Positions 12,802-59,193 of a stretch of DNA of 64,000 nucleotides are shown in pieces (within the stretch, counting starts at the first letter, position 1; each line of letters starts with the position of its first letter). The position numbers and the translations under genes are program-made. A model generated the notes under the pieces. That model was not told the origin of the DNA and searched no databases. It worked only from the letters and a program-made list of their open reading frames with translations. This stretch comes from Candidatus Omnitrophota bacterium. GTDB taxonomy: Bacteria; Omnitrophota; Gorgyraeia; Zapsychrales; Zapsychraceae. The DNA lies in the NCBI GenBank assembly GCA_023247445.1, contig JAHFGL010000004.1, positions 72,968 through 136,967 on the forward strand, given 5' to 3'.

Positions 12802-12814
12802 AAGGAGGATTAAA

Positions 12815-34927: not shown

Positions 34928-34955
34928 TTGACAATTGAAGGTTCTTTTCTATAAT
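34928..34955 (+). promoter_or_regulatory. Near-consensus sigma70 promoter.
   Basis: TTGACA at 34928-33, a 16-nt spacer, then TATAAT at 34950-55. It lies inside the 5' part of the listed ORF 34935.., which argues that the real start is the downstream ATG at 34983. Confidence 0.55.
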
Positions 34956-34982
34956 GATGTTCATAAACTGAACATCACTGCC

Positions 34983-38333: not shown

Positions 38334-38348
38334 TTAATTGTTTGGAGC

Positions 38349-41978: not shown

Positions 41979-41980
41979 AT

Positions 41981-44160: not shown

Positions 44161-44163
44161 GCT

Positions 44164-45234
44164 ATGAAAAAGAAAGTTAAATATCTATTAATCAAAGGAA
44201 ACTTTACCGTTAAGCAGGCCATGCGGCAGTTGGCGAAGGCGGGCGAGAAGATCCTGTTTGTCGTTGATGGCAAGGCAAAGCTCGTTGGCTCTTTAACCGA
44301 TGGCGATATCCGCCGATGGATTTTAGGCGGTGGACATTTATCTTCGGCGGTTGAAAATGCCTGTAATAAGAAACCGGTGTGTGTTCCTCTAGCGTATGAT
44401 GCCGAAGCGATTAAAAGCATGATGATTAGAAGAAAGATTCAGGTTATTCCTGTCGTTAATGAAGAGAAGGTTATTGAGGATGTCCTTTTATGGAATAATC
44501 TCTTTGGACAAGCAAGACAAATAACAAAGAGAAAGATATCAACGCCCGTTGTCATTATGGCGGGAGGACGAGGTACACGTTTGGATCCTTTCACCAGGGT
44601 TTTGCCTAAGCCGCTGATTCCGCTCGGTGATAAAACGATTATTGAATCAATCATGGAACGATTTTTTAAGCATGGCGTTTTAGAATTTCATTTATCGATT
44701 AACCATAAATCACAAATGATTAAGGCTTATTTTGCTGAGATAAAACTGCCGTATAAGATTCATATGGTTGAAGAAAATAAACCGCTGGGAACCGCTGGTA
44801 GTTTAAGATTTTTAAGGAATAAATTTAAAGATTCTTTAATGGTTTCTAATTGCGACATTATTGTGGAGACTGATTATCATGAACTCGAGACGTTTCATAA
44901 GTCCAAGGGCTATGATATCACGATCGTCGGATCATTTCGGCATTTTACGATTCCTTATGGGATCTGCGACATTGAAAACGGTGGAGAACTTCTTAATATA
45001 AAAGAAAAACCCGAATACGATTTCTTGGTCAATACGGGGATGTATGTTTTAAAGCAAAAGGTGCTAAACCTGATCCCGAAAAATGAGTTTTTTAATATGA
45101 CGGATTTAATTGAAAAGGTTAAGGCCAAAGGCGGCAAGGTTGGTGTGTTTCCTATTGATGAAAAATCCTGGATTGACGTCGGTCAACTGGAAGAATATCA
45201 CCGCGTGATTAGTTTGTTGGAGCGTAAGGAATGA
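44164..45234 (+). CDS. CBS-domain nucleotidyltransferase, PtmE-like sugar-1-phosphate guanylyl/nucleotidyltransferase.
   Basis: An N-terminal CBS pair (TDGDIRRWILGG) and a C-terminal NTP-transferase (VIMAGGRGTRLDPFTRVLPKPLIPL). The domain layout and position match C. jejuni ptmE (Cj1329). Confidence 0.75.
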   Translation: MKKKVKYLLIKGNFTVKQAMRQLAKAGEKILFVVDGKAKLVGSLTDGDIRRWILGGGHLSSAVENACNKKPVCVPLAYDAEAIKSMMIRRKIQVIPVVNEEKVIEDVLLWNNLFGQARQITKRKISTPVVIMAGGRGTRLDPFTRVLPKPLIPLGDKTIIESIMERFFKHGVLEFHLSINHKSQMIKAYFAEIKLPYKIHMVEENKPLGTAGSLRFLRNKFKDSLMVSNCDIIVETDYHELETFHKSKGYDITIVGSFRHFTIPYGICDIENGGELLNIKEKPEYDFLVNTGMYVLKQKVLNLIPKNEFFNMTDLIEKVKAKGGKVGVFPIDEKSWIDVGQLEEYHRVISLLERKE

Positions 45235-46175
45235 AGATTGTTATTTTTGGATTAGGTTCAATTGGTTTAAAACACGCGGGAGTACTAAGTGATAATTTTT
45301 CTCATCAGTTATATGCCTTTCGTTCCAATCGAACAGAGATGACGAATAAAGGTAACATTAAGAATATTTCTTCATGGAAAGAAGTAGATCAGATTAGTCC
45401 GGATATCGCTTTAATTTCGAACCCGACAGACTTGCATATTGCAACCGCGATCGAATGTGCGCGATGTGGAATGCATCTATTTATTGAAAAGCCGTTAGGA
45501 GCCAGCCTTAAAGATTTGGATAAATTATTAGCGGTTGTGAAAAAGAAGAAGCTAGCAACGTATGTGGCTTATCTTTTAAGGTTTCATCCAGTTGTTATGT
45601 ATGTGAAGAAAATTCTTTCAGCCAAAAAGTTTTTACATATGCGGGTTGTGACAAGTTCTTATTTGCCGTCATGGCGTGCTGGAACGGATTACCGTAGCGG
45701 TTATTCAGCTTCTCGCAAAAGAGGCGGCGGCGTTATCTTAGACCTGTCGCATGAACTTGATTATATTTCTTATATTACTGATGGCGTTAAAGATGTGTCA
45801 GCTCAATTTGAGAGACGAAGTGATCTAACAATCGATGCGGAAGATTTTGCAGATATCTTGGTCAAAACAAATAAAGGTCCAGCTAATTTACACATAAATT
45901 TTTTCAGTCACATCAATAAACGCCAGATCTCGGTTGATTTTAAAGATTCTTCCCTAACAGGTGATCTTTTAGAAAATAAAGTTTGTTGGTATAAAAAGGG
46001 TAAATTGCTTAAGACGGTTAAGTTCAAGGACGGTGTTCAAGATTGTCTGCTTAAGGAATGGAAATACTTTTTATCGAATTTAAACAAGCGTCGGATGATG
46101 AACAATGTGTTTGAGGCCACGGTGCTATTTAAAAAGATGCATGCGCTAAAGACAGGAAAGACAACTTATGCTTAA
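45231..46175 (+). CDS. Gfo/Idh/MocA-family oxidoreductase at the PtmF position.
   Basis: MKIVIFGLGSIGLKH and LFIEKPLG (EKP motif). Confidence 0.6.
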   Translation: MKIVIFGLGSIGLKHAGVLSDNFSHQLYAFRSNRTEMTNKGNIKNISSWKEVDQISPDIALISNPTDLHIATAIECARCGMHLFIEKPLGASLKDLDKLLAVVKKKKLATYVAYLLRFHPVVMYVKKILSAKKFLHMRVVTSSYLPSWRAGTDYRSGYSASRKRGGGVILDLSHELDYISYITDGVKDVSAQFERRSDLTIDAEDFADILVKTNKGPANLHINFFSHINKRQISVDFKDSSLTGDLLENKVCWYKKGKLLKTVKFKDGVQDCLLKEWKYFLSNLNKRRMMNNVFEATVLFKKMHALKTGKTTYA

Positions 46176-46878
46176 TATCCTTTTAACGATCGCGGCCCGT
46201 GGAGGGTCAAAGGGGGTTAAGAAAAAGAATATCAAACTTTTAGCGGGGCGCCCTTTAATTTCATATACGATTGCCCAGGCGAAAAGATGGGGAAAGGCCA
46301 AACATATTGTGGTCACGACCGATTCTTTAGAAATTGCTAAGGCGGCCAAGAAATTTGGCGCTGATGTTCCTTTCTTGCGGCCGAAAAATTTAGCGACTAG
46401 CACAGCATCTAAGGTCGATGTCATCAAACATGCGCTCATAGCCTCGGAAAATTATTATAAACAGAAGTTTGATGTTGTCGTGGACTTGGATGTAACGAGT
46501 CCGATAAGAACAGTTAAAGATTTAGATAACTGTTTAAAACTTTTTTTAAGAAAAAAACCGAATACTTTATTTAGTGTCGTTACGGCCAAGAAGAATCCTT
46601 ATTTTAATATGGTTGAAGAAAATAATGGCAAGGTTGTTTTATCTAAGCAATTGCCCGGCCGCATTGTTCGTCGGCAAGATGCACCCAAAGTTTATAGCAT
46701 GAACGCCTCGATTTATTTTTATGATCGTAAATATTTATTAACGGCAAAAGTTCCATCGCCTATTAATAATCGATGCTGCATGTATGAGATGGATGAGTTG
46801 TCCAGCGTTGATATCGATTCTGAACTTGATTTTAAATATATTGACCTATTGGTTAAGGAAAAATTGGTGCGCTTATGA
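46168..46878 (+). CDS. neuA: CMP-nonulosonic acid synthetase (acylneuraminate cytidylyltransferase; NeuA/LegF-like).
   Basis: ILLTIAARGGSKGVKKKNIKLLAGRPLISYTI is the CMP-NeuAc synthetase N-terminal signature. Size 236 aa. Confidence 0.85.
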   Translation: MLNILLTIAARGGSKGVKKKNIKLLAGRPLISYTIAQAKRWGKAKHIVVTTDSLEIAKAAKKFGADVPFLRPKNLATSTASKVDVIKHALIASENYYKQKFDVVVDLDVTSPIRTVKDLDNCLKLFLRKKPNTLFSVVTAKKNPYFNMVEENNGKVVLSKQLPGRIVRRQDAPKVYSMNASIYFYDRKYLLTAKVPSPINNRCCMYEMDELSSVDIDSELDFKYIDLLVKEKLVRL

Positions 46879-47669
46879 AAAATTATTCCCAAGATTTTAG
46901 TTTAGAAAACAAAGTCGCTTTCGTCTGTGGCGGCGCTGGTTTAATTGGTCGGGAAATTGCGATGGCGCTCGCTAATTTTGGCGCTAAGGTCATTGTCCTT
47001 GATGTCAATCGTACAAAGGCGATGAGTATCGTTAAAGAAATTCGGCATGCCGGTGGCAGTGCTCATTTTGAATTCTTTGACAGCACTAAACTAACCACAT
47101 TCGAGAAGAAGCTTGCTCAGTGGTACAAAAAATATTCAGGGATGGATGTTTGGGTCAATGTCACTTATCCACGCACATCCGATTGGGGACTTGCTGTTGA
47201 GAAACTAAAACTTGATTCATTTAAGAAAAATGTCGACATGCATTTAGTTTCGTATGTTTGGATGAGCCGTTGTGTGGGCTTGGCGATGAAGAAAAACAAA
47301 ATCAAAGGATCGATTATCAATTTTGGATCTATTTATGGCGTCCAGGCGAGTGACTTTACCGTTTATGAAGGCACCGATCTAACAATGCCCATGGCCTATG
47401 CCGCGATTAAGGCCGGGATTGTTAATTCCTCGCGTTATCTGGCTTCATATTTTGGTAAAGATGGAATCCGTTTTAATACGATTTGTCCCGGTGGCGTTAA
47501 AGATAATCAGCCATCGGCGTTTGTGAAAAAATATGAGCACAAGGTTCCGCTTAAACGAATGGCGGTGAAAGAAGAAATTCCTATGAGCGTTGTCTTTTTA
47601 GCCTCGAAGGCATCATCTTATATTACCGGTGAAACATTGATGGTAGATGGCGGATGGACAGTCGTTTAA
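46875..47669 (+). CDS. Short-chain dehydrogenase/reductase (SDR) at the PtmA position.
   Basis: VAFVCGGAGLIGREIA (TGxxxGIG-like) and YAAIKAG (YxxxK). Confidence 0.75.
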   Translation: MKNYSQDFSLENKVAFVCGGAGLIGREIAMALANFGAKVIVLDVNRTKAMSIVKEIRHAGGSAHFEFFDSTKLTTFEKKLAQWYKKYSGMDVWVNVTYPRTSDWGLAVEKLKLDSFKKNVDMHLVSYVWMSRCVGLAMKKNKIKGSIINFGSIYGVQASDFTVYEGTDLTMPMAYAAIKAGIVNSSRYLASYFGKDGIRFNTICPGGVKDNQPSAFVKKYEHKVPLKRMAVKEEIPMSVVFLASKASSYITGETLMVDGGWTVV

Positions 47670-47676
47670 ACAGATT

Positions 47677-48555
47677 ATGAAAAATATTAGAATCATTCCA
47701 CGCTTAGATATTAAAGGTCCCAATTTAGTTAAGGGAATTCATTTGGAGGGTTTGCGCGTTTTAGGAAAGCCCGAGCAGTATGCCAAATATTATTATGAAA
47801 CAGGGGCGGATGAATTAATTTATATGGATATCGTCGCGAGTTTGTATGGCCGTAACAGCTTGCTTAATATTATTGAAAAAACCGCGAGAGAAATTTTCAT
47901 TCCATTAACCGTTGGCGGTGGATTACGAACAATTGCTGATATTAACAATGTGTTAAGAGCCGGGGCTGATAAAGTTGCCATTAATACAGCCGCGATCCGT
48001 AATCCAGCTTTTATTAAAGAGGCCGCCAATCGTTTTGGATCATCAACGATTCTTATTTCCATTGAGGCGATCAAACAATCCGACGGACTTTATTATGCGT
48101 TTACAGATAACGGTAGAGAATATACGGGTAAGGAAGTTGTGGCATGGGCCAAAGAGGCCGCGTCCTTTGGCGCTGGCGAAATTCTTCTCACTTGCGTTGA
48201 TAACGAAGGTGCTGGATTTGGCTATGATAGTAATTTAGTTCGACAGGTCTCGGAAGCTGTTAACATTCCTGTCATTGCCTGCGGCGGCGCGGGGAAACCA
48301 GAAGATTTAGCAAAAGTTATTGGCGAAGGGAAAGCGGATGCGGTTTGTTTATCTTCGATGCTTCATTATGACTACATCGAACATCATAAGGTTGAGGGGG
48401 ATTTTTCAGCGGAAGGCAATATTGAATTCTTAAAAAGCCGGGAAATTTTTAAGAAGATAAAAAGTACAGATCTTAAAACAATAAAAACATTTTTATTTGA
48501 TGCGGGCATCTGTTGCCGTCATGAACTGAGTGCAAATTTAATGAGGGCGATTTAA
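47677..48555 (+). CDS. HisF-like cyclase subunit of a glutamine amidotransferase (WbuZ-like; acetamidino-sugar formation).
   Basis: MKNIRIIPRLDIKGPNLVKGIHLEG aligns to the HisF N-terminus (IIPCLDV..G.VVKG). It is paired with HisH-like and WbuX-like genes inside a glycan cluster. Confidence 0.75.
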   Translation: MKNIRIIPRLDIKGPNLVKGIHLEGLRVLGKPEQYAKYYYETGADELIYMDIVASLYGRNSLLNIIEKTAREIFIPLTVGGGLRTIADINNVLRAGADKVAINTAAIRNPAFIKEAANRFGSSTILISIEAIKQSDGLYYAFTDNGREYTGKEVVAWAKEAASFGAGEILLTCVDNEGAGFGYDSNLVRQVSEAVNIPVIACGGAGKPEDLAKVIGEGKADAVCLSSMLHYDYIEHHKVEGDFSAEGNIEFLKSREIFKKIKSTDLKTIKTFLFDAGICCRHELSANLMRAI

Positions 48556-49239
48556 GTGAAACCAAAAGTTGCAATCATCGATTTAAATATGGGAAATTTG
48601 TTCAGCATCAAGCAGGCCTGTGCGCATGTTGGGTTAGAAACTTTTATTACGTCGGATGCGCAAGAAATAAAAATGGCTGATGCTGTTATTTTGCCAGGGG
48701 TTGGCGCCTTTGGTAATGCGATGGAACATCTCAAAGAAAAAGATTTGATTAAGACGATTCATGAGGTGATTGCGCAAGGCAAACCTTTCTTTGGCATTTG
48801 TTTGGGAATGCAGATGCTTATGTCGGAAAGCGAAGAATTTGGTCGACACAAAGGTTTAGATATTATTCCAGGACGAGTTATTCGTTTTCCAAGTCGTGGG
48901 GCTAAAGAAAATGTTATCAAAGTTCCTCAGGTCGGCTGGAATCAGGTTTATCTGGCGGATCAATTTAAATTAAATCCTGAAAGAAGTTGTTGGAGTGATT
49001 TGGCCAATGGTGAGTATATGTATTTTGTGCATTCTTATTATGTTATTCCCCAGAATTCCAATGTCGTCGCGCTGGAAACAGTTTATGAAGATGTGAAGTA
49101 TTGTTCAGGATTGGTTAAGAACAATATTTTTGCGACACAATTTCATCCTGAAAAAAGCGCTGACAAGGGAATTAAGATTTATCAGAATTGGGCTAAGTTA
49201 GTTGAGAAGTCATTAATAAAAAGTATTCTGCTACGCTAA
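48556..49239 (+). CDS. HisH-like glutamine amidotransferase subunit (WbuY-like).
   Basis: VAIIDLNMGNLFSIKQAC..., a class I GATase with a Cys in GICLGMQ, and His/Glu near FHPEKS. Confidence 0.8.
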   Translation: MKPKVAIIDLNMGNLFSIKQACAHVGLETFITSDAQEIKMADAVILPGVGAFGNAMEHLKEKDLIKTIHEVIAQGKPFFGICLGMQMLMSESEEFGRHKGLDIIPGRVIRFPSRGAKENVIKVPQVGWNQVYLADQFKLNPERSCWSDLANGEYMYFVHSYYVIPQNSNVVALETVYEDVKYCSGLVKNNIFATQFHPEKSADKGIKIYQNWAKLVEKSLIKSILLR

Positions 49240-49318
49240 ATGCTTCCGCGTTAAGCTTCGCAGGAATTCCTACGAAGCTCAAACATGAAAATATTTGAGC
49301 GAAGTAGAAAGGAGTCGT

Positions 49319-50521
49319 ATGTTATTTCCTAATACAACATTAGATAAGTTTATTGGGCATCCCAACCGTCCCAAAGACATTACCTTTTGTACGAAATGCG
49401 TTGTCTCTAATCAGCGTCCACGGATTACTTTTAATAAAGATGGTGTTTGCAGCGCCTGTGGATTTGCCAATGAGAAACATCATGTCATCAATTGGAAAGA
49501 TCGTGAGGAACAGTTAGTGGCGCTTTTAGATAAATATCGTTCAAAAAATGGGGAATATGATTGTGTCGTTCCAGGAAGCGGGGGTAAAGACAGTAGCTAC
49601 ACCGCCCATCAACTAAAATATAAATATGGAATGCATCCTTTGACAGTTACCTGGGCTCCTTTTCTTTATACTGATATTGGTTGGCAGAATTATATTAATT
49701 TTAAAGATGCTGGATTTGAAAATCTATTATGTTTTCCAAACGGCATGATGCACCGCAAATTAGCGCGACTGGCTTTTGAGCTTTTAGGCGATGCGTGGGA
49801 ACCTTTTGCGTATGGTCAGAAAAGTTATGCCTTTCAGATTGCGGTTAAGTTTAATATTCCTTTAATTTTTTACGGAGAAAGTGGCGAAATTGAATATGGC
49901 GGTTCGTCTAAAAATAAAACCAAACCGTATGAAGACGTGGAGGATTGGAAGGATCTTTATTATAAAGGTTCGGGGTTGGATGATTTATTGGCTCACGGAC
50001 TTAAAGCCGGCCTTTTAACCGAAAAAGAAATTAAACAAACGTCGTTTGAGTTTTATAAACCGCCATCCGTTGAAAGTATTCGAAAACTCGGCATTCAGAT
50101 GCACTGGTTTTCGTATTATAAAAAATGGGTGCCGCAGGAAAATTATTATTACGCGACAGAACACACGGGATTTAAAGCCAATCCTGGGCGATCGGAAGGA
50201 ACCTATTCCAAATATGCAAGTTTAGATGATAAGACCGATGGCTTTCATTTTTATTTGGCGTATATTAAATTTGGGATTGCGCGCGCCACCTCAGATGCGG
50301 CGCATGAGATACGCGATGGTCATTTAACAAGAGAAGAAGGGGTTGCGTTGGTTCATCGTTATGATGGAGAATTTCCTCAGAAATATTTTAAAGAGTTTCT
50401 AGAGTATTTGAATATGACGGAAAAAGAATTCTGGGAAGTGATTGATTTTTACCGTTCTTTGTCTCCCCATGTGTGGCGTAGAAAAGATGGCCAATGGGAA
50501 TTAGTTAAAAAGGTTTCATAG
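49319..50521 (+). CDS. N-acetyl sugar amidotransferase (PP-loop; WbuX/PseA/WbpG-like).
   Basis: The DCVVPGSGGKDSSYTAHQL PP-loop. ATG at 49319 with an AAAGGAG RBS. It is the third member of the WbuX/Y/Z triad that makes acetamidino groups on amino sugars and nonulosonic acids. Confidence 0.75.
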   Translation: MLFPNTTLDKFIGHPNRPKDITFCTKCVVSNQRPRITFNKDGVCSACGFANEKHHVINWKDREEQLVALLDKYRSKNGEYDCVVPGSGGKDSSYTAHQLKYKYGMHPLTVTWAPFLYTDIGWQNYINFKDAGFENLLCFPNGMMHRKLARLAFELLGDAWEPFAYGQKSYAFQIAVKFNIPLIFYGESGEIEYGGSSKNKTKPYEDVEDWKDLYYKGSGLDDLLAHGLKAGLLTEKEIKQTSFEFYKPPSVESIRKLGIQMHWFSYYKKWVPQENYYYATEHTGFKANPGRSEGTYSKYASLDDKTDGFHFYLAYIKFGIARATSDAAHEIRDGHLTREEGVALVHRYDGEFPQKYFKEFLEYLNMTEKEFWEVIDFYRSLSPHVWRRKDGQWELVKKVS

Positions 50522-50685
50522 AGGGCTGAAACCTCTCTAAATTTCGTAGGTTACGGTAGGTTTTCTTATCGAGAAATGAAACGATTTTTAAGAAAAATAA
50601 CCTATGTTTTATGATGAAAAAATAGTACAATTAGGGTCAATAATTATATATAAAAGTATCAAATCTTATTTTAAGGGGTAGACCT

Positions 50686-52314
50686 ATGCAGAATAGGATC
50701 CAAGGTAAAAGAATTGATGGTGTTTTAGGTAATAATGAGCTGCGTGATTATTTGGCTAACAAAGAAGAGACCGCCGCCGTTGAGGTTGTCAAATCCAGTC
50801 AAGATCTCTATCAATACCAAAAACCTTTTACACGTCCAATCCAAACATTGCTCATTGCGCCGCCAATTACGATCCCGCGCAATATGCAAAAAAGGTGCAT
50901 TCCTCCTTTAGGGTTAAGTTATATTGCCGCCTCAATTGAAAAAGCTGGTTTAAATGTCAAGATGCTCGATGCCATGATTGAAGGTTATCATCATGATGAG
51001 TTTAATGGCAATCTTATGACCTATGGCCTTTCGATGCAGCAGTTAGAGGATCGACTTCGTCAAATGCCGGTCGCCCCCGATGTTATTGGTACATCGGTAT
51101 TATTCTCAACGGATTTACATAATCTTTATAACGTTGCTAAGGTGATCAAGAGAGTCTTTCCAGAAAGCATCATGATTGTTGGCGGACTTCATCCAACAAT
51201 TTATCCCAAAGAAATTTTTGAAATTGATGAGCAGATAAATGGAAAGAATCGCACCGTTGATTTTGTCATCCGCGGCGAAGGAGAAGTACGTTTTGTTGAG
51301 TTTATTAAGCTGATGCAAAAAGGCTTGATTGATCGAAAAGGCGATGGATTAGTTGGTTATCTTAATGGCGAGTTTTTCTGTAACCATCAAAAGGGAACAA
51401 TTGAAAATATCGATTCCTTACCTTTTCCCGCCTATCATTTACTTCCCATGGAAAAATATTTAAGTATCAATATCCCATTTTCACCGGTTCCGCAAGGAAA
51501 TCGCGTGGCCCAAATTCTAACTTCGCGGGGTTGCCCGATTGGATGCAGTTTTTGTGCGAGTACGAATATGTATAAAAGATATCGTCATCGTTCGGTTGAA
51601 AATATTATGCAGGAGATATTTCAGCTTAAAGAAAGATACGATATTGATGAAATTCAATTTGCCGACGATAATTTAACATTAAATCGTGAACATTCGATTC
51701 AGTTTTTTAATGAACTAAAAAAAGCTGGCCTAAAATGGTGTACGCCCAACGGGACCATGATCAATACGTTGACGCCGGATCTTTTGGATTTAATGGCTCA
51801 ATCGGGTTTGTATCAGATTACGTTGTCTGTTGATAGCGCTAATGCCAAGACCCTTAAAAACCTTCATCATAAACCGGTTAATTTAAACAGTATTCCGGGG
51901 CTTATTGCCAAAGCGAAAGAATATGGCATCTTTACGCATGGAACGCTTGTTGTCGGAATGCCAGGGGAAACAATTGATGATGTGAAAGAAGGTTTTGATT
52001 ATGTCAAAAGCAACTTGGGTTTTACCAGTATTTCAACATTTATCGCGGCCGCTATTCCCGGATCAGAGCTTTATCATCAATCATTAGACAAAGGATTAAT
52101 TACTCGAGAAGAGGCGCGGATGATTGATACGACAAAAAATAAAATTCATTTGTCGGAGATGAATCCAGAAGTTTTAGAAACCATGGTCATGGATTTTCAG
52201 GCAGAGTTTACGGAGATTGCTAAGAACCGTGATCCCGAAGAATATTATCGTAAATATAAAAAATTAATTGAATCAGGTCGATTAAAGGGCGCCTATGGGG
52301 GACGTTTAACATGA
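50686..52314 (+). CDS. Cobalamin-binding (class B) radical SAM enzyme, a putative radical methyltransferase.
   Basis: An N-terminal B12-binding Rossmann segment (CIPPLGLSYIAASIEKAGLNVKMLD). The radical SAM CxxxCxxC lies in ILTSRGCPIGCSFCAS. 542 aa. Confidence 0.75.
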   Translation: MQNRIQGKRIDGVLGNNELRDYLANKEETAAVEVVKSSQDLYQYQKPFTRPIQTLLIAPPITIPRNMQKRCIPPLGLSYIAASIEKAGLNVKMLDAMIEGYHHDEFNGNLMTYGLSMQQLEDRLRQMPVAPDVIGTSVLFSTDLHNLYNVAKVIKRVFPESIMIVGGLHPTIYPKEIFEIDEQINGKNRTVDFVIRGEGEVRFVEFIKLMQKGLIDRKGDGLVGYLNGEFFCNHQKGTIENIDSLPFPAYHLLPMEKYLSINIPFSPVPQGNRVAQILTSRGCPIGCSFCASTNMYKRYRHRSVENIMQEIFQLKERYDIDEIQFADDNLTLNREHSIQFFNELKKAGLKWCTPNGTMINTLTPDLLDLMAQSGLYQITLSVDSANAKTLKNLHHKPVNLNSIPGLIAKAKEYGIFTHGTLVVGMPGETIDDVKEGFDYVKSNLGFTSISTFIAAAIPGSELYHQSLDKGLITREEARMIDTTKNKIHLSEMNPEVLETMVMDFQAEFTEIAKNRDPEEYYRKYKKLIESGRLKGAYGGRLT

Positions 52315-53063
52315 GTTTGTCCATGGTCAGAGCGCAAAATTTAAAATTCGCTGAGAGTTTTGATGTTGTAAAAAAACATTTTATGCGGGAAGGATTTTAT
52401 TCGACCGCCATAACGGAATGCGTATATGATCTTATTACATATTATTTTGCGCCAATTATCCTTAAATTAAAATTGAGCTTAAATGACATTTCTCTTATAA
52501 GAATTGCTTTAGTTATTTCTTGTGTGTTATTTACAATTTTTGGTGGGCTTGAGGGTTGGCGGATAGGTTTTCTACTTTTCTTTATCGCTAATATTCTAGA
52601 TTATGTCGATGGGCGGGTTGCTCGGGCAACCAGTAAAGGGACTTATTTTGGTCACTTTATTGATGGATTAATTGATATCGCTTCTGAAACCATGATTCGC
52701 TTTGCGTTAGCTTGGGGAATCTATCATCAGTTTGGGTTTACCCCGTTATTTTGGTTAGGAATTCTAAGTATGATGTTAACATCATTTCATATTTTTCTTT
52801 ATGACCGTTATTCAGCTTTTGCCCGATGGATAAGCTCGACAAATAATATGAATATTTCCCCTGTTCTGCAGAGAAAAGGCCTTTTAAAACCTCAAAATGT
52901 AATGTGGGATTTAGAATGGTTATCTTTGTTTTTTTCTTTGGCTTTTTTTGTGCAAGCAATTTGGATCTATTTTATTTTAAGTCTGATTCACCAGGTGTTT
53001 TTTATTACCTATATTATAAACGGAGCCCATGACAACATGAGAGTTCCTAATGAGGCCCATTAA
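52311..53063 (+). CDS. CDP-alcohol phosphatidyltransferase family membrane protein.
   Basis: The diagnostic D-G-x2-A-R-x8-G-x3-D-x3-D motif is present as DYVDGRVARATSKGTYFGHFIDGLIDIASE, within a protein of about 6 TM helices. Confidence 0.7.
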   Translation: MSLSMVRAQNLKFAESFDVVKKHFMREGFYSTAITECVYDLITYYFAPIILKLKLSLNDISLIRIALVISCVLFTIFGGLEGWRIGFLLFFIANILDYVDGRVARATSKGTYFGHFIDGLIDIASETMIRFALAWGIYHQFGFTPLFWLGILSMMLTSFHIFLYDRYSAFARWISSTNNMNISPVLQRKGLLKPQNVMWDLEWLSLFFSLAFFVQAIWIYFILSLIHQVFFITYIINGAHDNMRVPNEAH

Positions 53064-53080: not shown

Positions 53081-54757
53081 ATGATAAAGACAAAAAAACT
53101 TCGTAAATTATTTAACGACAAAGAAGTCATTTATGTGATGGGTGCGCATAATGGATTAAGCGCCAAACTAGTCGAGCAAAGTGGTTATGATGCTGTTTGG
53201 GCCAGCGGGCTTGAGATATCAGCTTCTTACGCGGTTCCCGATGCCAATATTTTAACGATGACTCAGTACTTAGAAAAGTCATCAGAGATGAATGAAGCGG
53301 GATCTCTACCTATTGTCAGCGACTGTGATACGGGTTATGGAAATTCGAATAATGTTATTTATCTTGTTAAGAAATATGAATCCGCCGGAATTGCTGCTAT
53401 TTGTTTGGAAGATAAACTTTTTCCTAAGGTGAATAGTTTTATTGGTGGTCGGCAAGAGTTGGCCCCCATTGCAGAATTTGTCGGAAAGATCATGGCGGCA
53501 AAAAATACTCAACGTGATGAAAATTTTATGGTGATTGCTCGTGTTGAAGCTTTGATTGCGGGTTGGGGGGAACGCGAAGCTTTATTAAGAGCGGAAAAGT
53601 ATGTTGAAGCAGGCGCCGATGCGATTTTAATTCATTCGAAGAGAACGGATCCTGATGAGATTATCAGCTTTGCCAAGAAATGGGACAAACGTGCTCCTTT
53701 GGTTGTGGTTCCGACCACTTATCCCTCTTTAATGCAGAATTTTTCTGACACAGATTTATCTGGTTTAGGAATCAAAATGGTCATTTTTGCCAATCAAGGC
53801 ATTCGTGCTTCAATTAAAGCGATGGGAAAAATTATGTCAGATATGCGACAGTCTCGAGGGGCTGTTTCCGTTGAGAAAGAAGTCGCTACATTAAAAGAGG
53901 TTTTTGAATTGCAGGGAATGATCCAAATGAAAGATAGTGAAAAGAAATTCCTTAAATCTGAAAATAGTGATTTCAACGTGATTATTCTTGCGGCCGGAGC
54001 CCCTCAGCATGGAGATGATCTTGAGCCTTTGCTACGTGATCGTCCTGTCGCGCTTCTCGATATTAATGGCCAGTCGCTTATTAAACGTAACCTTGAAACA
54101 TTATCGCGATTTAGCGTCAATGAAGTTTGTGTTGTGACTGGTTATTGTAGTGAACAGTTTAATTTACCGGACGCAACTTTAATCCACAACCCAGATTACG
54201 AAGGTAAGAATGTTTTACATTCTATCGTCGCGGCTGAAGAGAAATTAAAAGGCAAGACACTACTGGCTTATGCGGATATTCTTTTTGATCGGGGCATTAT
54301 TGAAAAGCTTTTAAAGTGCGATGAAGACATTGTTTTGGTTGGTGATGCTACATTTAAGAAAGTGAATATGAATAACCGCCGAAAAGACTTTCTTGTGACC
54401 GATGAGATGCCCAAGATCACGTATCGCTCGATTGATCTTAATAAATTAAAATGTATCCGAAAAATTGGTGGTGATACTCTTCCTGAAGAAGCGCATTATG
54501 AATTTGTGGGATTGGCGCTTCTTAGTGATCGTGGGTCAAAGATATTTAAAGAAATGTATCACACCATGGCTAAAGAAAATAAGATGGAGATTCTTAACGA
54601 CAAAATTACAATTAACGATGTCTTTCAGGAAATTATTAATCGAAATATCCCCATATCAATGTTAGAGGTTAATTCGGGCTGGATTGAGATTCAGACATTT
54701 GAAAATTATAAAACAGCTTGTTATTTGCTTTCTCCACAGACAGAAGGAACCAGATGA
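53081..54757 (+). CDS. pepM: Phosphoenolpyruvate mutase (PepM) fused to a C-terminal nucleotidyltransferase domain.
   Basis: The N-terminal ~290 aa have the PepM-specific EDKLFPKVNS motif of the ICL/PEPM superfamily (distinct from isocitrate lyase), plus SDCDTGYG. The C-terminal ~250 aa (VIILAAGAPQHGDDLEPLL...) is an NTP-transferase fold. Confidence 0.8.
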   Translation: MIKTKKLRKLFNDKEVIYVMGAHNGLSAKLVEQSGYDAVWASGLEISASYAVPDANILTMTQYLEKSSEMNEAGSLPIVSDCDTGYGNSNNVIYLVKKYESAGIAAICLEDKLFPKVNSFIGGRQELAPIAEFVGKIMAAKNTQRDENFMVIARVEALIAGWGEREALLRAEKYVEAGADAILIHSKRTDPDEIISFAKKWDKRAPLVVVPTTYPSLMQNFSDTDLSGLGIKMVIFANQGIRASIKAMGKIMSDMRQSRGAVSVEKEVATLKEVFELQGMIQMKDSEKKFLKSENSDFNVIILAAGAPQHGDDLEPLLRDRPVALLDINGQSLIKRNLETLSRFSVNEVCVVTGYCSEQFNLPDATLIHNPDYEGKNVLHSIVAAEEKLKGKTLLAYADILFDRGIIEKLLKCDEDIVLVGDATFKKVNMNNRRKDFLVTDEMPKITYRSIDLNKLKCIRKIGGDTLPEEAHYEFVGLALLSDRGSKIFKEMYHTMAKENKMEILNDKITINDVFQEIINRNIPISMLEVNSGWIEIQTFENYKTACYLLSPQTEGTR

Positions 54758-55524
54758 TAAAAACTGTGATAACGGCTGTTATTCTAGCAGCGGGATTAGG
54801 GAGACGATTAAAAGAACTTGGGCACAATGCCCCGAAAGGATTTTTGAAGTTTGGGGAAAAGCCAATTATTGAAGAGTCCATTGAAAAGCTTCTTGAGTCA
54901 GGAATAACCCAGATTATTTTGGTCACAGGATTTTTAAGCGAGTTTTATGAAGATTTTGCTTCTAAGTATCCAGAAGTAAAAATTGTAAAAAATGAGCGAT
55001 ATGCGACTTCGGGAAGTATGTATTCCTTATTTTGTGCCCGCGCATTGATTAATAAAGATTTCTTGTTAGTTGAATCCGATCTTATTTACGAGCGATTAGC
55101 CTTAGAAACACTTTTGCAGTCTGTGAAAGAGAATTGTCTTTTGGTTTGTGGAGAAACAGAATTTGGTGATGAGGTTCATGTTGAGGTATTAAACGGCTGC
55201 GTCTCTAAGATTTCAAAAAAGAGAGAAGAGGTTAAGAACGTTTATGGAGAATTTATTGGGATTTCGAAAATTTCTTTTCCCATGTATCAAGTGATGCTAA
55301 GAGAATGCGAAAAATTATTTCAGAAGGATCTAAACATCGAATACGATACCGGATGTATTTCTGCTTTAGCCAATCAAGTTAAAGTTGGCGCCGAGAAAGT
55401 TGAAGATCTTCTCTGGTCAGAGATTGATAACAAAGAACAATGGCAACGGGTTCAAAAAATTATTTATCCCGCCATCCAAAGCAAAGATGGTCAGGCTCAG
55501 GTTGATTTAAGGAAAAAATGCTAA
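54754..55524 (+). CDS. LicC/PntC-like cytidylyltransferase (phosphonate / phospho-headgroup nucleotidyltransferase).
   Basis: VILAAGLGRRLKELGHNAPKGFLKFGEKPIIEESIE is the LicC-type CTP:phosphocholine/AEP cytidylyltransferase signature. ATGA overlap with pepM. Confidence 0.7.
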   Translation: MIKTVITAVILAAGLGRRLKELGHNAPKGFLKFGEKPIIEESIEKLLESGITQIILVTGFLSEFYEDFASKYPEVKIVKNERYATSGSMYSLFCARALINKDFLLVESDLIYERLALETLLQSVKENCLLVCGETEFGDEVHVEVLNGCVSKISKKREEVKNVYGEFIGISKISFPMYQVMLRECEKLFQKDLNIEYDTGCISALANQVKVGAEKVEDLLWSEIDNKEQWQRVQKIIYPAIQSKDGQAQVDLRKKC

Positions 55525-56681
55525 ACACAAAATTATTTGGTCAAGAATTAAAAACGTATGGATTTAACTTCTTTTCCGGCGTTCCATGTTCTTTTTTAAA
55601 AGACCTTATTAATTATGCGATTAATGATTTGCGTTATGTCGCGGCCGCTAACGAAGGCGATGCCGTTGCCATTGCGGCAGGCGCTTATCTTGGCGGCATT
55701 AAATCCGCGGTCCTCATGCAAAATTCTGGATTAACGAATGCGACCTCACCATTAACATCATTGGTTTATACTTTTAAGATTCCGATTTTGGGGTTTGTTA
55801 GTCTTCGGGGAGAAACAGGAATTACTGATGAACCGCAGCACGAACTTATGGGAACGATAACAACCAAGTTTTTAGATACAATGCAAATTCCATGGGCATT
55901 TCTTTCTGACCAAATCGAAGAAGCGCGAGAGCAATTAAAGCAGGCCAACGCTTTTATTGAAGAGAATAAGCCATTTTTCTTTGTTGTGCGCAAGGGAACC
56001 TTTGAGCAAGAATCTCTTAAAGCCCGGACGATCCCTTCTGTTAAAAATAATCGAAAGGTTTTAGAATCAAAATCTAGTCATCTTGTTAGCCGTAACGACG
56101 CTTTAACTGAGATTCATAAAATTAAGGATGACGACACTGTTTTTTTGGCAACGACGGGAGTAACGGGAAGAGAGCTTTATGAGATTGATGATGCGGAAAA
56201 TAATCTTTACATGGTTGGATCCATGGGATGTGTCAGTTCATTAGGATTAGGCCTGGCGCTGGCTACGCCGCAAAAAAAAGTTGTGGTCATTGATGGCGAT
56301 GGATCTTTACTCATGCGGATGGGAGCACTCGCGACTAACGCAGCGTATGGGCCAAAAAATTTATTGCATATTACTTTGGATAACGGGATTCATGATTCAA
56401 CGGGCGGACAAGACACCGCTTCTCTAAATCTGAGTTTTGTCGAAATTACGGCCGCCTGTGGTTATGATCAAGCCTTATATGCTCACGATCTTGATGAATT
56501 AAAAAAATATATCAATCAATGGAAAAGTAATCCGGCATTAACTTTTATTCATTTAAAGATTAAGAAAGGGACAAGAGAAGATTTGTCTCGTCCTAAAATT
56601 AAACCTTTTGAAGTTAAGAATCGGTTAATGAAATTTTTAATCAAGAAGAGTAACGTTTTGCATTCACAACATGCAAAATGA
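55518..56681 (+). CDS. ppd: Phosphonopyruvate decarboxylase (TPP-dependent).
   Basis: YGFNFFSGVPCSFLKDLINYA...VAAANEGDAVAIAAGAYLGG (N-terminal PYR domain) and GSMGCVSSLGLGLALA...IDGDGSLLM (TPP-binding GDG). It is directly downstream of pepM, as in all AEP pathways. Confidence 0.8.
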   Translation: MLNTKLFGQELKTYGFNFFSGVPCSFLKDLINYAINDLRYVAAANEGDAVAIAAGAYLGGIKSAVLMQNSGLTNATSPLTSLVYTFKIPILGFVSLRGETGITDEPQHELMGTITTKFLDTMQIPWAFLSDQIEEAREQLKQANAFIEENKPFFFVVRKGTFEQESLKARTIPSVKNNRKVLESKSSHLVSRNDALTEIHKIKDDDTVFLATTGVTGRELYEIDDAENNLYMVGSMGCVSSLGLGLALATPQKKVVVIDGDGSLLMRMGALATNAAYGPKNLLHITLDNGIHDSTGGQDTASLNLSFVEITAACGYDQALYAHDLDELKKYINQWKSNPALTFIHLKIKKGTREDLSRPKIKPFEVKNRLMKFLIKKSNVLHSQHAK

Positions 56682-58378
56682 AAGGAGATTTTATGGAGCA
56701 AGCTCCTGAAGTATCTTCAAAAATTCGCAATCCTGTTTTAGAAAAAAATATTCCCGAAGATAGTGGACTGCGTGAATATTTGGCTGGTAAGGAAGAGACG
56801 GGTTTTGTTAAAGCCTCTATCAGAACGACAAATCTTATCCGCACTCATGAAGGTAGCGATAACTGGCCACGAACACTTTTACTTATGCCTCCGATTACTT
56901 TGTCGGAAGGAACGGTTAAACGAGTTATTCCGCCGTTAGGCTTAGCTTATATTGGGGGATACTTAGAGTCACAAAATATTCCCTTTGATATTCTTGACTG
57001 CGTGGTTGAGGCCTTGCACGAAGAACGTTTGATTAGTGATAAAACATGGCAATATGGGATGTCGTATGATCAAATTCGGAAATATATCGAAAATTATAAA
57101 CCGGATATTTTGGGCCTTTCCATCATGTATTCGTCAGATCTACATGCCCTTTATGAGGTGGCTCAAATTGCCAAGGAAATTAATCCTAAGATAATAACGA
57201 TTGGGGGAGGGATTCATCTTTCAATTTACCCCAAAGAAGTTTTAAATGAAAGTTTGATTGATGGAAAGCCAACCCTGGATTATCTTATCCGTGGGGAAGG
57301 TGAAATCCGTCTCGCCGAGTTTATTAAAAATTATAAACAAGGACTGATAGATATTAATGCGGATGGTTTATGTGGTTGGAATAATGGCAAAATTTTTCTA
57401 AATCCTCAAGTTGAAACAATCAAAAATTTAGACGACATGCCTTTCCCCGCTTATCATCGATTGCCGATGGAAAAATATTTTGAGTGGAATGTTCCGTTTT
57501 CTCCATATCCTCGAGGGAAAAGAGTTATGCAACTTTATACCTCCCGCGGATGTCCGGTTGGCTGTACGTTTTGCGCCAGTACCAATTTCAATAAAGCTTA
57601 TCGTGGGCGTTCTCCAGAAAATATCATCAAGGAAATTAAATATTATCAGGAAGTCTACAATATTGATGAAATTCAATTTGCTGATGATAATTTAACTTTT
57701 GATCGAACGCGGTCCATGGAGTTCTTTGAACTCTTGAAAGATTGTAACCTCCCTTGGTGTACACCCAATGGAACGATGGTCAATACGTTGACAGAAGAAG
57801 TGCTGGAGAAAATGATTGCTTCAGGTCTTTATCAAGTCACCCTTTCTTTAGACAGTGGTAGTGTTAAGACCTTAAAGCAGTTTCATCGAAAGCCTGTAAA
57901 CCTACAAAAGGTCCCGGGGTTAATTGCTTATTTAAAACCTAGGGGTATTTTAAGTCATGGGACAATTGTTGTTGGGATGCCAGGAGAAACGATTGCGGAC
58001 ATTGAAGAAGGTTTTGATTATACCCGTAATTTAGCCTTAGACAGCGTCGCTGTTTTTATTGCTCAGGCCTTGCCAGGTTCTGAGCTTTATGAAAAGGCTA
58101 TCGCGAGTGGCACCATTGATCGTTTTAAGGCCCGCATCATTGATACGCAGCAAAATTTAATTAATCTTTCTGATGTTCCCCGGGAATATCTTGAAAGACG
58201 TGTGAGGGAATTTGTCGCTGAATTTAATCAGGTTGTTCGTAAAAACGATCCTGAAACTTTTGATAAGAAATACGCAAAGCATAAGGACCGTCTAAGACAA
58301 ATTTGTATTGGAATGGCTCATCATAATGTAGACGGCATACTTAAAGCCTATGAGTCATCGCCGGTAGAAACAGTTTAA
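56678..58378 (+). CDS. Cobalamin-binding (class B) radical SAM enzyme, a paralog of 50686..52314.
   Basis: VIPPLGLAYIGGYLESQNIPFDILD (B12 domain) and LYTSRGCPVGCTFCAS (CxxxCxxC). It is roughly 40-45% identical to the first copy along its length. Confidence 0.75.
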   Translation: MKGDFMEQAPEVSSKIRNPVLEKNIPEDSGLREYLAGKEETGFVKASIRTTNLIRTHEGSDNWPRTLLLMPPITLSEGTVKRVIPPLGLAYIGGYLESQNIPFDILDCVVEALHEERLISDKTWQYGMSYDQIRKYIENYKPDILGLSIMYSSDLHALYEVAQIAKEINPKIITIGGGIHLSIYPKEVLNESLIDGKPTLDYLIRGEGEIRLAEFIKNYKQGLIDINADGLCGWNNGKIFLNPQVETIKNLDDMPFPAYHRLPMEKYFEWNVPFSPYPRGKRVMQLYTSRGCPVGCTFCASTNFNKAYRGRSPENIIKEIKYYQEVYNIDEIQFADDNLTFDRTRSMEFFELLKDCNLPWCTPNGTMVNTLTEEVLEKMIASGLYQVTLSLDSGSVKTLKQFHRKPVNLQKVPGLIAYLKPRGILSHGTIVVGMPGETIADIEEGFDYTRNLALDSVAVFIAQALPGSELYEKAIASGTIDRFKARIIDTQQNLINLSDVPREYLERRVREFVAEFNQVVRKNDPETFDKKYAKHKDRLRQICIGMAHHNVDGILKAYESSPVETV

Positions 58379-58419: not shown

Positions 58420-59193
58420 ATGCTCAAAACAAATTATTTTACCAAGTCGGAGTTAGAAGCGTATGACAGGGATGGATTTATCCTTGTTAAAAACTTTTTT
58501 GATGCCGAGAAATTAAAACACGTTATTAAGATGGTGGATGAATTAATCGCGATGCCTGATAGGGTTGGATTCATTTGGAAGTTTTACGAAGATTTATCAT
58601 CAAATGGAGCAGGTAAAATTCTAGATCGTATTGAGAATTATACTTTTTTGGTTGATGGATGGAAGGGGCTTATCGCTGAAGGAGAATTGCGAGATCGTTC
58701 TTCGGAGCTTTTTGGTGAAGACGCAATTCTATTTAAGGATAAAATTAATTTTAAATATCCTGGTGGACGAGGATTTAAACCTCATCAAGATATGCATGGT
58801 GATTGGCAGATTTATGCCGAGAAATTTTTGACAGCATCAATTGCCTTAGATCGATGCACTATTGAAAATGGATGTCTTTATGTTTCCGCAGGTGATCATA
58901 AAAGAGGCCTTTTTGGAAAAATGTGGGAACCAATTCCTGATGAGTTATTAAAGAAAGAAAATATTAAGTGGATTCCATTAGAAATGGAAGCGGGAGATGT
59001 GGCCTTTTTTGATGCTTATACGCCTCATTATTCAGAGCGTAATTTAAGTAAAATCCGTCGAGCCATGATCCATTTAACTTATAATAATAAAACCGCTGGC
59101 GATTTTTATCAAAAGCATCTTGATGATAAAAGAGTGAACTATCCTCCGGATATCGAGCGAAAAGAAGGTAAAAGCTATGTTTATCGTGTCTAA
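58420..59193 (+). CDS. Phytanoyl-CoA dioxygenase (PhyH) family Fe(II)/2-oxoglutarate oxygenase.
   Basis: 257 aa. An HxD...H facial-triad arrangement (HQDMHGDW ... TPHYSERN) and a PhyH-like N-terminal region (DGFILVKNFF). Confidence 0.65.
   Translation: MLKTNYFTKSELEAYDRDGFILVKNFFDAEKLKHVIKMVDELIAMPDRVGFIWKFYEDLSSNGAGKILDRIENYTFLVDGWKGLIAEGELRDRSSELFGEDAILFKDKINFKYPGGRGFKPHQDMHGDWQIYAEKFLTASIALDRCTIENGCLYVSAGDHKRGLFGKMWEPIPDELLKKENIKWIPLEMEAGDVAFFDAYTPHYSERNLSKIRRAMIHLTYNNKTAGDFYQKHLDDKRVNYPPDIERKEGKSYVYRV

Follow-up and report, generated by a model that had tools for sequence, protein, structure and literature searches.

The 64,000-nucleotide stretch of DNA analysed here (the window), from a Candidatus Omnitrophota bacterium, encodes at positions 52311..53063 (+ strand) a 250-aa integral-membrane cytidine diphosphate (CDP)-alcohol phosphotransferase (CDP-AP). 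This transferase is a six-helix-core membrane enzyme of a previously undescribed clade and, judged by its motif, is a catalytically intact CDP-AP. We consider the chances about even that it moves a cytidine monophosphate (CMP)-activated, 2-aminoethylphosphonate (AEP)-type group onto a legionaminic-acid-type sugar or a glycan carrying that sugar. An earlier note on this DNA had seen only a phosphonate cluster around the gene and had proposed a phosphonolipid synthase; it missed that the phosphonate genes end a legionaminic-acid and acetamidino-sugar operon. A sugar or glycan acceptor fits better than diacylglycerol because the choline and ethanolamine phosphotransferases (CPT/EPT) are distant relatives, because the enzyme is no orthologue of the one in the bacterial clusters classed as 'Group 1 phosphonolipids' and because the gene, like those of its relatives in the loci long enough to judge, lies among genes for nonulosonic acids (NulO), nine-carbon sugars that resemble sialic acid.

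The transferase and its clade

The gene is an ATG-initiated open reading frame (ORF) that spans exactly 52311..53063 in the ORF list of the window, and no ORF of at least 80 aa competes with it on either strand. Residues 97-122 of the translation, DYVDGRVARATSKGTYFGHFIDGLID, hold the catalytic motif D97-x2-D100-G101-x2-A104-R105-x8-G114-x3-D118-x3-D122 (52599..52676, + strand); all positions of the superfamily signature D-x2-D-G-x2-A-R-x7-12-G-x3-D-x3-D are present, and the motif and spacing reported in the earlier note are correct. Pfam PF01066 matches with an E value of 5e-10 and a score of 40.4 bits against a gathering cut-off of 22, and the match is therefore far beyond chance. An AlphaFold model (pLDDT 92.3, pTM 0.87) has the helical CDP-AP core, and its polytopic helical membrane fold superposes on the solved CDP-APs 4MND, 4O6M, 5D91 and 6H53 (Foldseek probability 1.00, TM-scores 0.5-0.74). 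The positions of the catalytic motif, the last Asp excepted, are at least 90% conserved in alignments of the family. A second, family-specific block, YDRYSAFARW (residues 164-173; 52800..52829, + strand), is located where a long helix is predicted to end on the cytoplasmic side; R172 and W173 are at least 90% conserved in both family alignments, as are D165 and S168 in the alignment of 44 sequences. Helix boundaries and loop charges in the model suggest that the catalytic motif and these polar residues (D165, S168, R172 and W173) face the same, cytoplasmic side of the membrane.

Relatives of this protein are rare. A word-index search of 5.8 billion proteins returned two matches, the transferase itself and one relative of 38% identity, while an exhaustive HMMER search of 1.84 billion representatives gave 1080 matches at E<=1e-3, of which 83 reach E<=1e-10 and 17 reach E<=1e-30; the majority have 240-260 aa and align over their full length. 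The clade has the signature DxxDGx[IV]ARxxxx[ST][ST][FY][FYW]G[KR][FY][IL]DGxxD and a C-terminal [FY]D[RK][YF]S-x3-RW block. The transferase matches the clade profile over its full length, this block included, and the family members from the loci described below score 234-278 bits over the whole family hidden Markov model (HMM). The pattern YDRYSAFxRWI, which matches the window, has no match in the contigs of GTDB representative genomes, where automatically derived peptide patterns gave 75 stretches, all spurious; pattern scans of viral contigs found nothing. In a neighbour-joining tree, members associated with AEP and radical SAM genes (motif DGRVAR) group together, with members from phosphoramidate loci branching beside them; a third group consists of members from hydroxyethylphosphonate (HEP) loci and from loci with no visible donor pathway. 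The Group 1 enzyme falls far outside these groups, as an outgroup of 13-20% identity. The transferase is 35-37% identical between the window and three operons (L007, L008 and L016) whose flanking rSAM1 and PepM proteins are 62-77% identical to those of the window; set against rSAM1, and against PepM in L007, the figures are 36-37% for the transferase and 70-77% for its neighbours. Such faster divergence is as expected if the acceptors vary.

Among proteins of solved structure, the family profile finds AF2299 (E 4e-16), DIPPS (6.5e-13) and the PIP synthases (PIPS; about 5e-12) well ahead of PssA (2e-5), CEPT1 (9e-5), PgsA (1.5e-3) and CHPT1 (2e-3). Foldseek gives a similar order for the model, with IPCT-DIPPS at 8e-5, AF2299 at 5e-4, then PIP synthases, and CHPT1 and CEPT1 at E>=0.25. 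The archaeal enzymes IPCT/DIPPS and AF2299 (PDB 4MND and 4O6M) are thus the best matches in both sequence and fold (Foldseek ranks 1-5). They share the catalytic motif and the helical core, and AF2299 aligns through the DRY/DKF block of the family. However, identities are only 13-18% and TM-scores 0.5-0.6, and the score against NF041135, the IPCT/DIPPS equivalog, is 26.8 bits against a cut-off of 580, which is not the level of a DIPP synthase. The transferase also lacks the fused cytoplasmic domain of IPCT-DIPPS. The archaeal enzyme joins CDP-inositol to inositol phosphate in compatible-solute synthesis, whereas the predicted substrates here are a CMP-phosphonate and a nonulosonic-acid-type sugar and the setting is a surface polysaccharide operon. 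A CDP-AP that takes both donor and acceptor from soluble, polar compounds has a precedent in DIPPS.

Sugar loci and donor pathways around the transferase genes

The transferase gene lies between a B12-binding radical SAM gene upstream and a PepM-NTP_transf_3 fusion downstream, exactly where the earlier note had placed it. The upstream gene, rSAM1 (50686..52314, + strand), encodes a B12-binding radical SAM methyltransferase of the Sden_1168 family (NF038361, 597 bits; CPIGCSFC motif). The downstream gene (53081..54757, + strand) encodes a phosphoenolpyruvate mutase (PepM; PF13714, E 2e-53) fused to an NTP_transf_3 domain (PF12804, E 9e-10), a fusion of the Ppm-PntC/Fom1 type; its PepM score is just under the equivalog cut-off, and the diagnostic motif EDKLFPKVNS (EDK-x5-NS) is present at residue 110. 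The module continues on the + strand with a second nucleotidyltransferase, NT2 (54718..55524), the phosphonopyruvate decarboxylase Ppd (55518..56681; TIGR03297, 424 bits against a cut-off of 312), a second B12-radical SAM methyltransferase of the Sden_1168 family, rSAM2 (56678..58378; NF038361, 765 bits; 51% identical to rSAM1), a PhyH-family Fe(II)/2-oxoglutarate dioxygenase resembling phosphonate hydroxylases (58420..59193; PF05721, E 4e-26; NF052437, 139 bits, below cut-off) and an AEP aminotransferase (59209..60327; TIGR03301, 446 bits against 361). The best NCBIfam match of NT2 is NF041135, in the IPCT half of IPCT/DIPPS (positions 2-222, 89 bits, far below cut-off); hence NT2 and the transferase together may resemble a split, unfused IPCT-DIPPS. 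Two further genes on the same strand follow, one for a 701-aa protein of GT-B fold whose relatives carry PF27878 'PFTS_polysacc' (60320..62425) and one for a NanM-like putative sugar O-methyltransferase (62428..63519; TIGR04371, 229 bits against 44).

These phosphonate genes close a co-directional run that comprises about 26 genes and about 28.5 kb and is headed by a predicted sigma-70-type promoter-like site, TTGACA-16-TATAAT, that matches the consensus at 12/12 positions (34928..34955, + strand). All genes of the run are on the + strand. The first encodes an HTH_24 winged-helix regulator (34935..35567; PF13412, E 1e-5), whose true start is probably downstream of the first listed TTG, and the second a fused ABC exporter of 620 aa (ABC_membrane and ABC_tran in a domain scan; MsbA/PglK-like architecture; 35500..37362). 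Early NulO precursor genes follow at 37359..41339, namely a 4,6-dehydratase, two GFO/IDH/MocA oxidoreductases and a DegT aminotransferase, all identified by domain scan. The legionaminic-type NulO core (41340..47669; TIGR03570, TIGR03569 at 432 bits, TIGR03568 at 444 bits, TIGR03584 and NF050062) comprises a NeuD/PglD acetyltransferase, the NeuB synthase, the NeuC hydrolysing epimerase, a PtmE-like protein with CBS and NTP-transferase domains, a PtmF-like oxidoreductase, a CMP-NulO synthetase (CTP_transf_3) and a PtmA-like short-chain dehydrogenase. Next is an acetamidino-forming trio (47647..50521) of a HisF/WbuZ-like protein, HisH and the N-acetyl sugar amidotransferase WbuX (TIGR03572, TIGR01855 and TIGR03573 at 274, 203 and 357 bits).

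Genes of the run overlap or are a few bases apart, with one sizeable gap of 164 nt (50522-50685) that contains a 9/12 promoter-like site (50588-50615). As this gap directly precedes rSAM1, it suggests that the phosphonate module was added onto a NulO operon. The ATG of the transferase overlaps the rSAM1 stop codon (ATGA), and PepM starts 17 nt past the transferase stop. No convincing terminator was found between rSAM1, the transferase gene and PepM, and terminator-like sites number 11 against 18.6 in shuffled sequence. Co-transcription of the three genes is plausible on the grounds of their common strand, this overlap and spacing and the lack of a convincing terminator between them. The PtmA-, PtmE- and PtmF-like genes raised the possibility of a flagellin-glycosylation island, which was rejected; there are no flagellar or Maf genes in the 64 kb, and the ABC exporter, the GT2 genes and the polytopic membrane proteins are typical of polysaccharide loci.

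Eight loci were long enough to judge: the window, L001, L002, L004, L009, L011, L016 and L017. NeuB and/or WbuX-HisF/H sugar genes occur in 8/8 of them and phospholipid genes in 0/8. Every long related locus again has the acetamidino trio, and five of the eight (the window, L009, L011, L016 and L017) have a fused ABC exporter. A pathway for a CMP-activated phosphorus donor (CMP-P-X) adjoins the transferase gene in six loci and is of three chemistries, an AEP-type phosphonate, an HEP-type phosphonate and a Campylobacter-type phosphoramidate. The transferase is the only uncharacterised gene common to all three.

The best parallel to the window is L016, in which NeuC, CTP_transf_3, two radical SAM genes, the transferase, a PepM-nucleotidyltransferase fusion, Ppd, a nucleotidyltransferase and the AEP transaminase are followed by a member of the 701-aa family, a fused ABC exporter and further CTP_transf_3 genes. 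The order radical SAM, transferase (P0005), PepM is likewise that of the window in L007, which has the AEP pathway, while in L008 the transferase (P0006) lies between a B12-radical SAM and a methyltransferase gene; orthologues of rSAM1 that are 70-73% identical directly precede the family members in these two loci. The HEP-type branch is represented by L009 (L009:2519-20780) and L010, with CTP_transf_3, ABC, TauD, nucleotidyltransferase, CTP_transf_like-PepM, Ppd, Fe-ADH, transferase and HTH_24 genes and then NeuB, NeuC, a WbuX-like gene, HisH and HisF. These two loci come from two ocean metagenome assemblies, L010 from TARA; their GC content is 26%, and their family member, P0155, occurs on at least 24 contigs. 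In L001 the transferase (P0002) follows a pseudaminic-type operon (PseC, CTP_transf_3, WbuX-like, PseG, PseH and NeuB) and precedes genes for a 639-aa unknown, a B12-radical SAM protein and a methyltransferase.

The phosphoramidate loci, L002 (L002:4841-12401) and L003/L004 (L004:5733-12921), run HisF, HisH, WbuX, PglD, a PPDK-like kinase, a Peptidase_C26 amidohydrolase, an NTP_transf_3 cytidylyltransferase and the transferase, together with methyltransferase and APS-kinase-like genes. Their HisF, HisH and WbuX are 58-61% identical to those of the window. The kinases of L002 and L004 match PRK05849 at 631 and 823 bits, over the equivalog cut-off, and the best NCBIfam match of the amidohydrolases is gamma-glutamyl-CDP-amidate hydrolase, below cut-off. 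The cytidylyltransferase adjoining the transferase gene in L002 and L004 is homologous to both nucleotidyltransferase domains of the window (E 1e-16 to 1e-23). In Campylobacter jejuni, Cj1415-Cj1418 make the CDP-phosphoramidate donor for decoration of the capsule with O-methyl phosphoramidate (MeOPN), and attachment depends on Cj1421/Cj1422, with no CDP-AP reported in the cluster (PMC11800397). The MeOPN system resembles our proposal in that a cytoplasmic phosphorus donor of the cytidine-diphospho type places its phosphorus group on capsule sugars, and relatives of the transferase directly follow the Cj1416-18-like genes in L002 and L004; its donor, however, is a phosphoramidate, unlike the C-P phosphonate of the window. 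The position of a family member right after Cj1415-Cj1418 homologues in L002, L003 and L004 implies that a CDP-AP may replace Cj1421/Cj1422 outside Campylobacter.

Family members also occur in NulO loci lacking PepM. In L011-L013 the family member, which like that of L017/L018 is intact, (10001-10738) lies between HisF and a 397-aa unknown, and in L017/L018 (10001-10747) it follows a deacetylase and a formyltransferase, with an MBOAT gene nearby; both are NulO/acetamidino loci with a fused ABC exporter, and neither PepM nor phosphoramidate genes were found within 10 kb of the transferase. A small GT2 gene recurs in L011, and other GT2 genes are present in the window and in L017. The 701-aa protein and the 639-, 504- and 397-aa unknowns beside family members have no detectable relation to one another and no sequence match in the PDB. 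Radical SAM genes similar to rSAM1 and rSAM2 adjoin NulO genes without a visible PepM in L001, L008 and L015, and for this reason these enzymes might methylate the sugar skeleton rather than a phosphonate. The physiological substrate of the Sden_1168 family is not established (PMC9204698).

Donor, acceptor and alternative roles

In the mechanism that we propose, PepM, Ppd and the AEP transaminase would make AEP. Hydroxylation or C-methylation may follow, with the PhyH dioxygenase and one or both of the B12-radical SAM enzymes as tailoring enzymes, and one of the two cytidylyltransferase domains would convert the (tailored) AEP to a CMP-phosphonate. PntC-type enzymes are known to make CMP-AEP (PMC6697681), and the B12-radical SAM enzyme Fom3, as cited in PMC9204698, methylates a cytidylylated phosphonate. 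At the cytoplasmic face of the membrane, the D-x2-DG-x2-AR...G-x3-D-x3-D metal site would hold the cytidine nucleotide while a hydroxyl of the acceptor attacks the phosphonyl phosphorus and CMP is released. In chemical terms a CMP-phosphonate, as a phosphoric-phosphonic anhydride, is the equivalent of a CDP-alcohol. Pathway logic and established CDP-AP chemistry point strongly to a CMP-phosphonate as the donor because the transferase is the sole CDP-AP of the module and because its relatives track three CMP-P-X pathways. CMP-NulO as the 'CDP-alcohol' donor was rejected on chemistry, since it is a diester of a single phosphate and offers a CDP-AP no anhydride bond.

The genomic context points, less firmly, to an acceptor that is a hydroxyl of a legionaminic-type sugar or its glycan. 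Within the proposed mechanism this hydroxyl would most probably belong to the legionaminic-acid-type sugar that the operon itself makes, which could be present as CMP-sugar, as free sugar or on a lipid-linked glycan. The reaction would thus yield a surface glycan decorated with phosphonate, and the fused ABC transporter of the operon would help to export it. The reasons are the invariable sugar context, the lack of lipid genes, the kinship with DIPPS, AF2299 and the PIP synthases (which bind polyol-phosphate acceptors), a cluster of Arg, Trp, Asp and Ser residues that is specific to the family and close to the active site, and the speed at which the transferase diverges. Other tailoring steps of NulOs occur at the CMP-sugar stage (bioRxiv 10.64898/2026.04.20.719630), so that a cytoplasmic-face reaction on a soluble sugar nucleotide has a precedent. 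LicD-type and TagF/FtaD-type enzymes transfer a CDP- or CMP-activated head group onto a sugar hydroxyl of a surface glycoconjugate, as proposed here, but they have unrelated folds, lack the CDP-AP motif and are soluble or peripheral rather than polytopic. LicD-like enzymes have previously been proposed as phosphonoglycan transferases (PMC6697681, PMC9381506).

Several observations weigh against a sugar or glycan acceptor. Where the CDP-alcohol donor of a CDP-AP is soluble, the acceptor is mostly a lipid, as in CPT/EPT, and to our knowledge the precedents for a soluble donor with a soluble acceptor are of the DIPPS type only. No phosphonylated nonulosonic acid was found in the literature searched. 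Since L011-L013 and L017/L018 have no donor pathway within 10 kb, the donor of the clade is not always explained. The contexts are those of metagenome contigs and amount to a small sample, about 10 distinct loci for about 1080 family matches. The MsbA-like exporter is equally compatible with the flipping of a lipid product, and the module contains a second uncharacterised candidate transferase, the 701-aa GT-B protein. Finally, the closest relative, P0002 (L001:7176-7889), has Asn in place of the fourth catalytic Asp.

Two other members depart from the clade pattern, P0006 (L008:1491-2231), with Leu in place of the motif Arg, and P0003, the third-best family match, which is a degenerate tandem duplicate in an unrelated context, beside a molybdopterin oxidoreductase, and was left out of the inference. 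By sequence, P0002, P0006 and P0003 are possibly inactive or repurposed copies.

A wider form of our proposal is that the whole clade consists of general 'P-decoration' transferases, which would esterify whatever CMP-activated phosphorus donor the locus makes (aminoethylphosphonate, hydroxyethylphosphonate, phosphoramidate and perhaps methylphosphonate) onto NulO-containing glycans. We advance this tentatively and would sooner expect it to fail than to hold in full.

Of the alternatives, synthesis of a phosphonolipid, as the earlier note proposed, survives best, but we regard it as unlikely. The phosphonyl head group would pass from CMP-AEP to diacylglycerol or ceramide, giving a membrane lipid like phosphatidylethanolamine (PE), which may be flipped by the ABC exporter or may serve as a periplasmic donor, as PE does for EptA-type enzymes. 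A soluble CDP-alcohol-type donor and a lipid acceptor are the canonical chemistry of CDP-APs such as CPT/EPT, the transferase is predicted to be integral to the membrane and a fused MsbA-like ABC exporter lies within the operon. CHPT1 and CEPT1 can also use CMP-AEP to make phosphonolipids. They belong to the same superfamily but are proteins of about 365-380 aa with extra transmembrane helices, compared with 250 aa here, and their acceptor is diacylglycerol. Given their remote profile matches and their poor structural agreement with the model (Foldseek E 0.25-0.6, rmsd 10-13 Å), the analogy with these eukaryotic enzymes drawn in the earlier note is weak. The nearest solved relatives, AF2299 and DIPPS and then the PIP synthases, bind polyol-phosphate acceptors instead. 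Moreover, no clade locus has phospholipid genes, all long loci are sugar loci, some of them without PepM, and no EptA-like (sulfatase-fold) gene was detected in scans of the window.

The closest bacterial comparison is with clusters of Ppm-PntC, PntC, Ppd, AEP transaminase, oxygenase and CDP-OH genes, which have been classed as 'Group 1 phosphonolipids' (Burkholderiales_CDP-OH; PMC8942020); a cluster of this type is also found in Nostoc (PMC5987646). The window has 6/7 functions of the Group 1 core, namely the Ppm-PntC fusion, a second PntC, Ppd, AEP transaminase, the Fe/2-oxoglutarate oxygenase and the CDP-OH enzyme (PMC8942020). As reference we used the core from Mycetohabitans rhizoxinica pBRH01 (L014), with the CDP-OH enzyme WP_041754879.1. 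Yu et al. (2013) are reportedly also to be credited for this class of CDP-OH enzyme. The superfamily and the motif are those of the transferase, and the presumed donor is likewise CMP-(hydroxy)AEP. However, homology between the two enzymes is limited to about 80 residues around the motif (53 residues aligned by BLASTP, 82 columns by hhalign), and against the family HMM the Group 1 enzyme reaches 54.8 bits, confined to positions 46-130, compared with the full-length scores of the members; it also lacks the DRYS..RW block. The transferase is thus not its orthologue. A tblastn search of the plasmid collection PLSDB, which includes Burkholderia replicons with Group 1 clusters, gave no match to the transferase. 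No gene with a LysylPG-synthase domain (HpnL-like), the partner gene present in L014, was found among the ORFs of the window scanned, and the window adds two B12-radical SAM enzymes and the fusion of the module to a NulO operon. The product of Group 1 has itself never been characterised (PMC8942020). Hence, an intact CDP-AP within a pathway expected to produce a CMP-phosphonate stands from the earlier proposal, while the sugar loci of the clade and the mismatch with Group 1 argue against its lipid product.

It is also conceivable, though improbable in our estimation, that the transferase phosphonylates a polyprenol or builds a lipid primer or anchor for the NulO polymer before ABC-dependent export, so that its product would be a lipid-linked phosphonate intermediate and not the final decoration of the glycan. 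The recurrence of the fused ABC exporter in five loci, the GT2 genes of L011, the window and L017 and the membrane location fit such a role, and the polyprenol acceptor mentioned in the earlier note is chemically feasible for a CDP-AP. However, we know of no precedent for a CDP-AP acting on a polyprenol. The variable donors (AEP, HEP and phosphoramidate) look like decoration and not like a conserved anchor, and a constant lipid acceptor does not obviously explain why the transferase diverges so fast compared with its neighbours.

An explanation to which we give still less credence is that transfer from the CMP-phosphonate is in fact the task of the 701-aa GT-B protein, in the manner of TagF, TarL or FtaD, and that the CDP-AP uses CDP-diacylglycerol or CDP-glycerol on the NulO or glycan. 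The 701-aa family immediately follows the AEP transaminase in 3/3 loci (the window, L015:1164-3215 and L016:10001-12067), and the TagF-like FtaD of Clostridioides difficile transfers a phospho-amino acid from a CDP donor onto the GlcNAc of flagellin (bioRxiv 10.64898/2026.02.12.704994). A housekeeping donor would also explain the members without a visible donor pathway (L011-L013 and L017). The AlphaFold model of the 701-aa protein (pLDDT 83) has a GT-B fold with TarL among its Foldseek matches, but epimerases, generic GT-B enzymes and a polysialyltransferase match about equally well. The protein has no NCBIfam match and no local Pfam match even at E<=1, and so no match to the TagF family (Glyphos_transf). 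Furthermore, no member of the 701-aa family occurs in the HEP and phosphoramidate loci, where the CDP-AP is kept, and the operon is otherwise without an obvious NulO transferase, a role that this protein could fill. The EHPFYK motif conserved in the 701-aa family presumably resembles the HP motif of sialyltransferases. The 701-aa protein is a candidate for either a NulO glycosyltransferase or a rival phosphotransferase.

That the transferase is a housekeeping phospholipid synthase (PgsA, PssA or Pcs) lying here by chance is hardly credible: although some relatives are automatically named 'phosphatidylglycerophosphate synthase' at JGI, NCBIfam scores are far under the cut-offs (pgsA, 24.5 bits against 109.1; pssA, 22 against 107; ClsA, 19.8 against 240), which places the protein outside PgsA and PssA and means that, as far as sequence goes, the refutation named in the earlier note does not apply, the clade is rare (two word-index matches; 83 clusters at E<=1e-10), the gene belongs, with translational coupling, to a specialised operon and its very low identity between otherwise similar operons is unlike that of an essential, conserved enzyme.

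The rest of the window and significance of the clade

The remainder of the window is ordinary Gram-negative chromosome, with MetH, MTHFR and glycosyltransferase genes, and no tRNA genes were found in it. A cobalamin riboswitch (RF00174, 56.7 bits; 12567-12706, + strand) lies directly before a BtuB-like TonB-dependent receptor gene (12785-14800), and MetH, for which no relative at 90% identity or more turned up, is at 5603-9289; control of B12 uptake thus shares a neighbourhood with the two B12-dependent radical SAM genes. Just upstream of the operon, between two GT2 genes, are genes for two polytopic membrane proteins without a family match, one of 482 aa with at least 6 transmembrane helices (30386-31834, - strand) and one of 477 aa with at least 9 (32745-34178, + strand), which are candidates for a polymerase, ligase or flippase. 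Two giant ORFs, at 27-4580 and 22480-26772, encode a 1517-aa protein with a weak GT1 domain and a 1430-aa protein with NHL and He_PIG repeats; the latter is probably a surface protein.

The general idea that a CDP-OH enzyme in a pepM cluster makes a phosphonolipid is already published. Our searches found no literature link between CDP-APs and O-antigen or NulO loci, or between phosphonates and nonulosonic acids. The existence of a separate CDP-AP clade with ties to NulO and acetamidino-sugar loci therefore appears to be new, as do its pairing with phosphonate and phosphoramidate donor pathways and the implied role as a transferase for the decoration of glycans with phosphorus groups.

How nucleotide-activated phosphonates come to be attached to the bacterial surface is a recognised gap in knowledge. 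Rice et al. (2019) called the steps after C-P bond formation 'enigmatic' (PMC6697681), Li and Horsman (2022) noted that no Group 1 product has been characterised (PMC8942020), and Acker et al. (2022) inferred phosphonoglycoproteins in the ocean without naming a transferase (PMC8931226). The clade described here is a concrete candidate family for this step; it comes with a defined putative donor, CMP-phosphonate, and a short list of candidate acceptors, and appears to serve three donor chemistries. If diacylglycerol were the acceptor, no bacterial phosphonolipid synthase outside the Group 1 type would have been assignable before this transferase. Should legionaminic or pseudaminic acid prove to be the acceptor, the modified sugars formed would represent a new class among the sialic-acid-like sugars of bacteria, which would matter for phage receptors, for immune recognition and for the question of where marine phosphonate esters come from. 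Because members occur in ocean PepM-Ppd-Fe-ADH loci, the family could create the phosphonate esters of marine high-molecular-weight dissolved organic phosphorus, to which the L009/L010 locus would be a possible enzymatic link.

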